This document shows positions 45,591-46,762 of a stretch of DNA of 64,000 nt, piece by piece. Each line of letters begins with the position of its first letter. Position 1 is the stretch's first letter. The DNA comes from Eledone cirrhosa (lineage: Eukaryota). Location: positions 13,826,001 to 13,890,000 of the forward strand of contig OZ024743.1 in the NCBI GenBank assembly GCA_964016885.1, given 5' to 3'. A program made the translations under genes and the position numbers. The notes under the pieces were generated by a model, which was not told where the DNA came from, made no database searches, and saw nothing but the letters and a program-made list of their open reading frames with translations.

Positions 45591-46762
45591 AATTAGTATA
45601 TCTACCAACATATGTATACAGATGTATACCTATGCTAGCAAATATATATGTTATGTCTTAGTACCTTTGTGGTTATATGCAGGGGGATGCAGAACAATTA
45701 TATGAAAGACGTAAAATATGAAAATTTTAAAAATTAAAAATCGACTTACTTACTAAAATTGTCACTCCAACTAATTAGTTCCTGTAAGGGGATAAATATA
45801 GTTACGTAACATAACTAGAGAATTCCTTACGACATCAGGGAGTCTATTCTCAGCTAAGTTCCCATGCAATGCGCGGACACTAGGAACCCATATAAAAATA
45901 ATAATTCAGTGGATGGAATAAAGCTAGCGGGGACTAAATTCCAAAGCACTGAAAGAATTCACTGCCTCCTTGGTCAGTGGCAGATTCTAAAGAATCAATC
46001 ACGTGACACTGAGGTTAATCAGTGAGGAGTGGGGTGGTAGTATGACAAGAGCCTACTACTACCATGAATCACAGCAGTAAATTTTGGCAAGATTTACTCA
46101 ACAAACAACATGGAGATAAATATAGAGAATTAGTATATCTACCAACATATGTATACAGGTGTATACCTATGCTAGCAAATATATATGATTTTTAATTTTT
46201 AAAATTTTCTTATTTTACGTCTTTCATATAATTGTTCGGCATACCCCTGCATAGAACCACAAAGGTACTAAGACATAACATATATATTTGCTAGCATAGG
46301 TATACACCTGTATACATATGTTGGTAGATATACTAATTCTCTATATTTATCTCCAAGTTGTTTGTTGAGTAAAACTTGCCAAAATTTACTGCTGTGATTC
46401 AGGGTAGTAGTAGGCTCTTATCATAATACCACCCCACTCCTCACTGATTAACCTCAGTGTCACGTGATTGATTCTTTAGAATCTGCCACTGACCAAAGAG
46501 GCAGTGAATTTTTTCAGTGCTTTGGAATTTAGTCCCCGCTAGCTTTATTCCATCCACTGAATTATTATTTTTATATGGGTTCCTAGTGTCCGCACATTGC
46601 CTGGGAACTTAGCTGAGAATAGACCCCCTGATGACGTAAGCAATTCTCTATAGTTATGTTACGTAACTATATTTATCCCCTTACAGAAACTAATTAGTTG
46701 GAGTGAACATTTTAGTAAGTTGAGTTTTAATTTTTAAAATTTTCTTATTTTACGTCTTTCAT
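45591..46762. mobile_element. Family G retrozyme-like element: two opposed arms, each slightly more than one 537-bp monomer
   Basis: 45591-45650 repeats at 46128-46187. 46188-46762 is a circularly permuted reverse complement. Non-coding, HHR present. Confidence 0.8.
46623..46704 (+). ncRNA. Type I hammerhead ribozyme (family G)
   Basis: acccc CTGATGA cgtaag...cttaca GAAA c taatta GTT ggagt. The opposite-arm copy (45764-45843, minus) has ACTCC in stem I but two core mutations. Confidence 0.7.

Follow-up and report, generated by a model that had tools for sequence, protein, structure and literature searches.

The locus analysed here holds two inverted copies of a hammerhead-bearing unit of about 536 nt, each slightly longer than the unit itself, inside a 64-kb stretch of microsatellite-rich, animal-like DNA (the window). 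It raises the question of which RNA was copied into DNA at this site: a circle generated by the ribozyme, as the earlier note had proposed in describing the locus as the footprint of a retrozyme-like circRNA, or a linear transcript longer than the unit that served as a template for the enzyme of a Penelope-like element (PLE).

Structure of the family G insertion

The insertion, which is referred to as family G, consists of a left arm of 601 nt (1.12 units) and a right arm of about 580 nt (1.08 units, from 46186/7) joined 5' to 5' (Table 1). Each arm comprises one monomer plus a short redundancy, as had been noticed before. In the left arm, positions 45587-45650 recur at 46124-46187 (64 nt, 1 mismatch) with a period of 537, and in the right arm positions 46190-46230 recur exactly at 46725-46765 (41 nt; 44 of 45 if counted from 46186) with a period of 535. 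The arms are also permuted relative to each other, again in agreement with the earlier note, with 5' starts 115 nt (left) and 22 nt (right) and 3' ends 177 nt (left) and 62 nt (right) past the predicted ribozyme cut site; one of the claimed permutation points, the right-arm 3' end, may be a truncation instead. Aligned from the ribozyme cut onward over 539 columns, the two units show 19 substitutions and 2 short indels, a divergence of 3.6% that excludes a sequencing fold-back. The 30 nt past the cut site form the most divergent part between the arms.

The whole insertion thus combines a partial tandem (pseudo-LTR) with an inverted 5'-truncated copy, as PLE insertions show. Since both flanks are (TA)n, a target-site duplication is indiscernible. 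Self-BLAST found no further family G copies in the 64-kb window besides the two inverted arms, no tandem master of the unit was found within the window, and a 28-nt family G pattern gave 0 matches in a bacterial and archaeal genome collection, where animal DNA is not expected. At 45258-46794 a single (TA)n array carries three separate PLE insertions: the end of a coding element, a small head-to-head fragment and family G. A-to-I editing or another odd source of mutation was considered for the differences between the arms and rejected, the 4 A/G and 2 C/T differences being too few; the odd transition:transversion ratio of 6:13, against 167:116 for all pooled pairs (p 0.03), resembles that of six other PLE pairs (20:29) and was likewise set aside.

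Table 1. Positions in the window of family G, its flanks and the elements discussed in the text.
Feature	Position	Strand	Description
Left arm	45587..46187	minus	One 537-nt unit + 64-nt terminal redundancy; 3' end at canonical 'short' PLE end
Right arm	46186..46765	plus	One 535-nt unit + 41-45-nt redundancy; 3' end at internal ATATA, non-canonical
Head-to-head (5'-5') arm junction	46186..46187		Arms overlap by 1-2 nt
Left flank (target)	45454..45586		(TA)n, then (GA)n microsatellite
Right flank (target)	46761..46794		(TA)17; 5-nt overlap with right-arm end
Type I hammerhead, right arm	46622..46705	plus	Intact core; GUU cut predicted after 46699
Left-arm hammerhead copy	45763..45844	minus	No mismatch in stem I; changes at two conserved core positions; cut site after 45769
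UU-bulged hairpin, right arm	46350..46370	plus	CTC/GAG outer stem, 3-4-bp inner stem, TT bulge
Left-arm hairpin copy	46096..46116	minus	One inner-stem change; missed by the strict scan
Example hairpin sites	13350+, 14034-, 18418+, 21734+, 37152-, 45127+, 45393+, 46351+, 49712-, 53051+		
Coding Hydra-clade PLE	39735..45258	plus	One 5477-nt unit + 47-nt redundancy; ends 330 nt upstream of family G
Small head-to-head PLE end fragment	45277..45453		In the same (TA)n array; one end 7 nt before its own hairpin, the other 43 nt after it
ORF-less, hammerhead-less unit locus	12620-13889		543-550 nt; relative at 22440-23190
Further hammerhead-bearing PLE end families	14135+, 16642+, 17353-, 18172-, 18311+, 49819-, 49286-, 54156+, 26774-, 28624+		
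SINE-sized repeat copies	4483-4664, 9975-10131, 28921-29038, 60239-60399, 61032-61225, 63085-63928		

Coding capacity and folding of the unit

The longest stop-to-stop frame in the closed family G unit is 55 codons and tblastn with the neighbouring PLE protein gave no match to the unit at E<=10, upholding the earlier statement that the monomer has no ORF. The template portion copied carried no ORF, and family G, without an ORF for RT and GIY-YIG, is not an autonomous PLE. The GC content of the unit is 35%. Relative to shuffles, the circular fold of the sense strand has a z of -6.4 in both arms, against -1.9 and -2.7 for the antisense strand, and the circular fold is not stabler than the linear one (-130.1 vs -132.9). 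Hairpins are abundant throughout the unit, beyond the ribozyme end.

Hammerhead ribozymes

Hammerhead elements are named here by the usual numbering convention. A descriptor scan detected a type I hammerhead in each arm, which bears out the earlier description of one hammerhead per monomer with a predicted GUU cut at 46699/46700. A wider scan of the window, which allowed at most 1 core mismatch and used 10 shuffles as a control, returned 16 matches; 11 of these are distinct perfect-core sites, with 0 such sites in each of the 10 shuffles. In the right-arm ribozyme, 51 nt separate the core halves, giving a long stem II with a C.A mismatch at its closure; stem I also carries a C.A mismatch, and stem III is a 10-nt palindrome able to pair with itself at -9.0 kcal/mol. 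The left-arm copy has complete stems and two altered core positions. Rfam reported no hammerhead at its gathering score (0 matches), none among 21 weak matches, and no other family that convinces. Its best match was to a plant microRNA model; this was rejected, since it scored 53.8 bits where the cut-off is 85 and owes its score to the central inverted repeat. Both family G ribozymes are damaged and each strand carries only one; therefore no circle or monomer can be released from this locus by double self-cleavage. A transcript spanning it would mostly fold into a long hairpin.

More hammerhead-like motifs lie at 21389+, ~17185-17085 -, 39459+ and 29229-, each with a palindromic or near-palindromic stem III, and two of them combine a CCGAAGA core variant with a long stem II. 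The window also contains at least three further hammerhead-bearing PLE end families, several of them as short head-to-head insertions.

A UU-bulged hairpin at the element ends

The signal that had been recorded as CTCC...TTGTTGAGT is a hairpin whose outer stem pairs CTC with GAG; the inner stem has 3-5 bp, and TT bulges out on the 3' side. Its placement just past the left-arm end was correct, the CTC at 46351 lying 9 nt beyond the end position of that arm. Scanning the window for the hairpin gave 18 sites, of which 14 are short-looped; shuffles gave 0.5 on average and 4 at most. With an expectation of 0.05, a pattern search found 17 overlapping matches, which fall on 9 sites. The motif was defined from the same window, and the counts are not independent because the 18 sites represent about nine families. 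The bulge is TT in 14 of 129 candidate sites, the other 15 dinucleotides occurring at 0-3 sites each, and (TA)n follows 43-65 nt downstream of the hairpin in 12 of the 18 sites. Among families the inner stems vary yet stay paired and the outer pair is A-T or G-C by turns; MAFFT left the hairpins out of register.

The hairpin is common to about nine otherwise dissimilar PLE families in the window. Among five published Hydra consensus ends inspected in PMC8557442 it was recognised by eye in three, Hydra-2_Amil (with TT) and Hydra-1_Ajap and Hydra-2_Ajap (with TA), while it was not seen in the consensus of Hydra-1_Obim and had no clear form in that of Hydra-1_Crog. A literature search, with most subscription papers outside it, returned no published description of the hairpin and so is weak evidence for novelty. 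The UU-bulged hairpin is a candidate RT-binding or start signal. With it, two questions become open to test: what fixes the pair of RT start sites and the PLE tail, and whether the enzyme copies a circle or an uncut tandem.

End positions of the insertions

The ends of 16 hand-picked candidate insertions were inspected and 11 were counted; the five dropped were two without a head-to-head layout, two palindromes in which no hairpin could be recognised and one whose second arm is minimal but which fits the rule. The script values '26' (three rows) and, for family G, '1' and '35' are chance matches and were disregarded. In all ten hairpin-bearing head-to-head insertions besides family G, the arm ends bracket the hairpin, one arm ending 33-65 nt past it and the other 7-10 nt before it (41 once, at a local repeat). 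This offset is the PLE tail; for a Poseidon element the tail has been matched to a pair of RT start sites (PMC11167929).

When family G is compared with this pattern of two 3' ends with a tail between them, the left arm ends 9 nt before the hairpin position, which is the short site used by the window's other PLE families, and the right arm ends at neither site. The right arm stops at an ATATA, one of the unit's six alternating TA runs, about 120 nt ahead of the hairpin; the long end expected would lie about 190 nt further on. A TTGAGT at 46718-46723 on the plus strand, about 38 nt before this non-canonical end, is missing from the other two copies of the stretch and could be a cryptic signal or chance.

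The neighbouring coding PLE

The element immediately upstream carries an 811-aa open RT/GIY-YIG frame (39929-42364) with an Asn/His/Thr-rich insert between RT and EN. Inspection by eye revealed the motifs RWR (RWK-like), DKT, a CxCX5C linker, CxxC and CxH, and no CCHH; because these match the list in PMC8557442, the element was assigned to the Hydra clade. Pfam gave no match for the 811-aa protein, 89 relatives were found at E<=1e-20 in a protein search, and 20 candidate stretches yielded 0 confirmed loci in bacterial and archaeal genomes (animal DNA not expected). Its 3' UTR of 2.9 kb contains 138- and 109-bp tandem repeats and microsatellites. The hammerhead at 44916-45048 resembles that of family G in its long stem II, C.A closure, palindromic stem III and GUU, the stem II region measuring 114 nt, and the hairpin at 45127-45199 is the long-loop form. 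Decayed or truncated Hydra-type RT/EN fragments also occur at 27119-27904 on the plus strand (59% identity to the coding neighbour), 51507-53003 on the minus strand (40-46%) and 29766-30302 on the plus strand (21-33%).

Nucleotide homology between family G and the coding PLE does not rise above shuffles (z 0.77; 22 of 100 shuffles as high). Of the 11 targets compared with family G, only 49636-49920 exceeds all shuffles (z 3.7), convincingly around the hairpin alone. The link of family G to the Hydra clade therefore rests on motifs and context: it has a (TA)n target and a canonical hammerhead near its 3' end, as Hydra elements do. The coding PLE is a possible source of the enzyme in trans.

Other repeats in the window

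LINE-type sequences include a 4.4-kb direct duplication (78-4434 and 5228-9597, 96%) that carries a 957-aa RT frame, and, at 55524-59749 on the minus strand, three RT/zf-RVT fragments that overlap one another. A dispersed family of 100-190-nt repeats, SINE-like in size, is present in many copies. No tRNA genes were found in the window, and a sigma-70 promoter scan, inapplicable to an animal, gave 5 against 6.0, which is chance level.

Proposed template and mechanism

We propose that family G is a non-autonomous derivative of a Hydra-clade PLE, inserted in one event by an enzyme acting in trans on an uncleaved linear RNA longer than one unit, and we give this proposal an even chance of being right. 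A template longer than one unit is indicated because both arms cross the unit junction. In the accounts of PMC8557442 and PMC3846280, PLE insertions comprise partial tandems, an inverted 5'-truncated copy and an optional tail, with (TA)n as the target for Hydra elements, and published Hydra hammerheads have a palindromic stem III and, in many cases, a 1x1 mismatch closing stem II (PMC8557442). The Poseidon PLE studied in vitro extends both target strands from two internal starts that bound the tail; it mainly uses unprocessed (uncleaved tandem) RNA, and its ribozyme mutants insert normally (PMC11167929).

The proposed route would begin with a master copy elsewhere that has the unit arranged in tandem and whose transcript spans at least about 1.45 units. 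The GIY-YIG domain would cut (TA)n and the enzyme would recognise the UU-bulged hairpin, one target end priming 9 nt before the hairpin to give the left arm and the other priming at a second site, expected 33-65 nt past the hairpin. That the right-arm end falls about 190 nt short may be due to a later deletion to (TA)n or to priming at an internal AUAUA. Both cDNAs would traverse the uncut ribozyme and halt before the previous cut site, at distances of 115 and 22 nt from it; this cut site is possibly the 5' end of the RNA. The two cDNAs would then join through the 1-2 nt overlap, and the copy would have decayed since insertion (3.6% between the arms). The three-copy regions do not discriminate between one and several templates for the arms.

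The ORF-less 543-nt unit at 12868-13889, a PLE passenger that equals family G in size, has the hairpin and forms a 1.9-mer with an inverted arm, and no hammerhead was found on its sense strand at <=2 core mismatches, nor any Rfam match; more-than-unit templates therefore seem to arise without a ribozyme-made circle. The 5' ends 22 and 115 nt past the cut fit a cut linear RNA of about 1.45 units, and the chance of a right-arm 5' end within 22 nt of the cut site is about 0.04-0.05 if ends were uniform, a post hoc value for one end. Counted against a linear tandem template are that the window contains no master tandem and no other copy, that the overshoots are only 41-64 nt in family G and 47 nt in the neighbour, for which a circle is simpler, and that the right-arm 3' end needs an extra event. 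An L1-type twin priming on a 2.3-unit RNA, which would leave 49 nt between the 3' end of the right arm and the 5' start of the left one, was set aside as making more assumptions than a 1.45-unit RNA with two PLE starts.

A circle would be made if a tandem master were cut by paired hammerheads and the monomer ligated to a 536-nt circle, of which the Hydra enzyme would copy one turn plus 41-64 nt of strand displacement per end. This is possible but rather unlikely. It accommodates the overshoots of 64 and 41-45 nt (family G) and 47 nt (neighbour), three within 7 kb, and agrees with the far better than shuffled folding of the sense strand, with the GC content, which is inside the retrozyme range, and with the self-pairing stem III, a feature of dimer-acting hammerheads (PMC4209133). 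Circles are moreover established for other animal repeats, including the type I hammerhead repeats of coral, mussel and axolotl (PMC7229834), which also counts against a linear tandem, and were proposed for PLEs in 2014 (PMC4209133). However, the right overshoot hangs on the non-canonical end and would be about 235 nt with a canonical one, the circular fold has no advantage over the linear fold, and the hammerhead-less unit folds equally well (z -5.0 vs -5.1, linear fold) and forms its 1.9-mer, while in vitro self-cleavage was reported for only 1 of 9 Xenopus dimers (bioRxiv 10.64898/2026.07.22.740005). As a specific inference, the reading as a circRNA footprint is not supported: the coding neighbour likewise has the form of one unit and about 50 nt more (47 nt), the hammerhead-less unit is a 1.9-mer and Poseidon uses uncleaved RNA. 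What stands of the earlier proposal is that a PLE RT copied an ORF-less hammerhead unit, as suggested by the template of more than one unit, the (TA)n target and the end hairpin. A further version is doubtful. In it, the Hydra-clade PLE RT would go round a hammerhead-made circle exactly once and add about 45-65 nt by strand displacement, as recorded by three ends within 7 kb (64, 41-45 and 47 nt), and the UU-bulged hairpin would serve as landing pad for the enzyme, set both starts and turn any RNA carrying it into a passenger; if such one-turn circle copying were true, the locus would be a DNA fossil of a 536-nt circRNA, which would explain pseudo-LTR formation.

It is improbable that the unit is simply the last 536 nt of a coding Hydra PLE, tandem-duplicated at the source, with both arms 5'-truncated before the ORF. 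The neighbour's 2.9-kb 3' UTR means that its last 536 nt would also be ORF-less with a hammerhead and hairpin, partial tandems are described as the rule for PLEs (PMC8557442), and Li et al. suggest such a duplication as the birth of retrozymes (bioRxiv 10.64898/2026.07.22.740005); but no (TA)n remnant or visible junction is seen 40-65 nt past the hairpin, both arms would have to halt before leaving the duplicated part, and the whole unit, not the ribozyme end alone, is hairpin-rich. A DNA rearrangement or misassembly, in which the insertion was inverted-duplicated by fold-back repair or mis-joined in a microsatellite-rich assembly, is very improbable. The flanks are long microsatellites and such PLE structures are known to assemble poorly (PMC8557442); however, the 19 substitutions and 2 indels set the arms apart, ten other insertions share this geometry, and a single fold-back is at odds with a right arm that spans from 22 nt past the cut to 62 nt past the next one and a left arm that starts at 115. 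Our preferred reading thus remains the uncleaved linear RNA of more than one unit.

Comparison with known systems

Animal non-LTR retrozymes share with family G the lack of coding capacity, one type I hammerhead, a GC content under 45% (PMC7229834), a size range of 51-972 bp and a proposed mobilisation by PLEs; the PLE origin of animal retrozymes is argued by Li et al. 2026 (bioRxiv 10.64898/2026.07.22.740005), and solo monomer derivatives are described for them (PMC7229834; bioRxiv 10.64898/2026.07.22.740005). The suggestion that family G is larger than known retrozymes has to be withdrawn, since 535-537 nt falls inside the published 51-972 bp of non-LTR retrozyme families, whose mean is 650 bp in ray-finned fish (bioRxiv 10.64898/2026.07.22.740005). 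It is larger than the 170-400-nt circles of PMC7229834. An active retrozyme is defined by a head-to-tail tandem with at least two complete hammerhead units (bioRxiv 10.64898/2026.07.22.740005), whereas family G has arms of 1.12 and 1.08 units in head-to-head orientation, one hammerhead per strand and damage in both ribozymes. Because the two-hammerhead tandem is missing at this locus, family G is best filed as a solo retrozyme-like copy and not as an established retrozyme member.

With Hydra-clade PLEs, as described in PMC8557442, family G shares the (TA)n target, terminal redundancy, an inverted 5'-truncated arm, a bulged end hairpin and a hammerhead with a palindromic stem III and mismatched stem II closure; it differs from them in having no ORF, a stem II far longer than those of the Hydra entries in file S2 of that paper, and a C.A closure in place of T.T or G-C. 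The non-autonomous Chlamys PLEs (MRC1) are likewise ORF-less passengers with pseudo-LTRs and form head-to-tail multi-copy insertions; unlike family G, they belong to another clade and host and most are without hammerheads (PMC8557442). PAc, a Poseidon PLE of Anolis, resembles family G in its two internal RT starts bounding the tail, the extension of both target strands, an AT-rich target and a stem-loop at the start region, but is a coding element whose stem-loop is AC-rich, lies inside the ORF and is not UU-bulged (PMC11167929). As a family, family G is of minor importance, being one more non-autonomous PLE or solo retrozyme-like copy. A link between retrozymes and PLEs was argued earlier from co-occurrence and terminal-repeat similarity (bioRxiv 10.64898/2026.07.22.740005, PMC7229834); family G connects a retrozyme-like unit with a single PLE clade by the cis-element and the end positions that they have in common.
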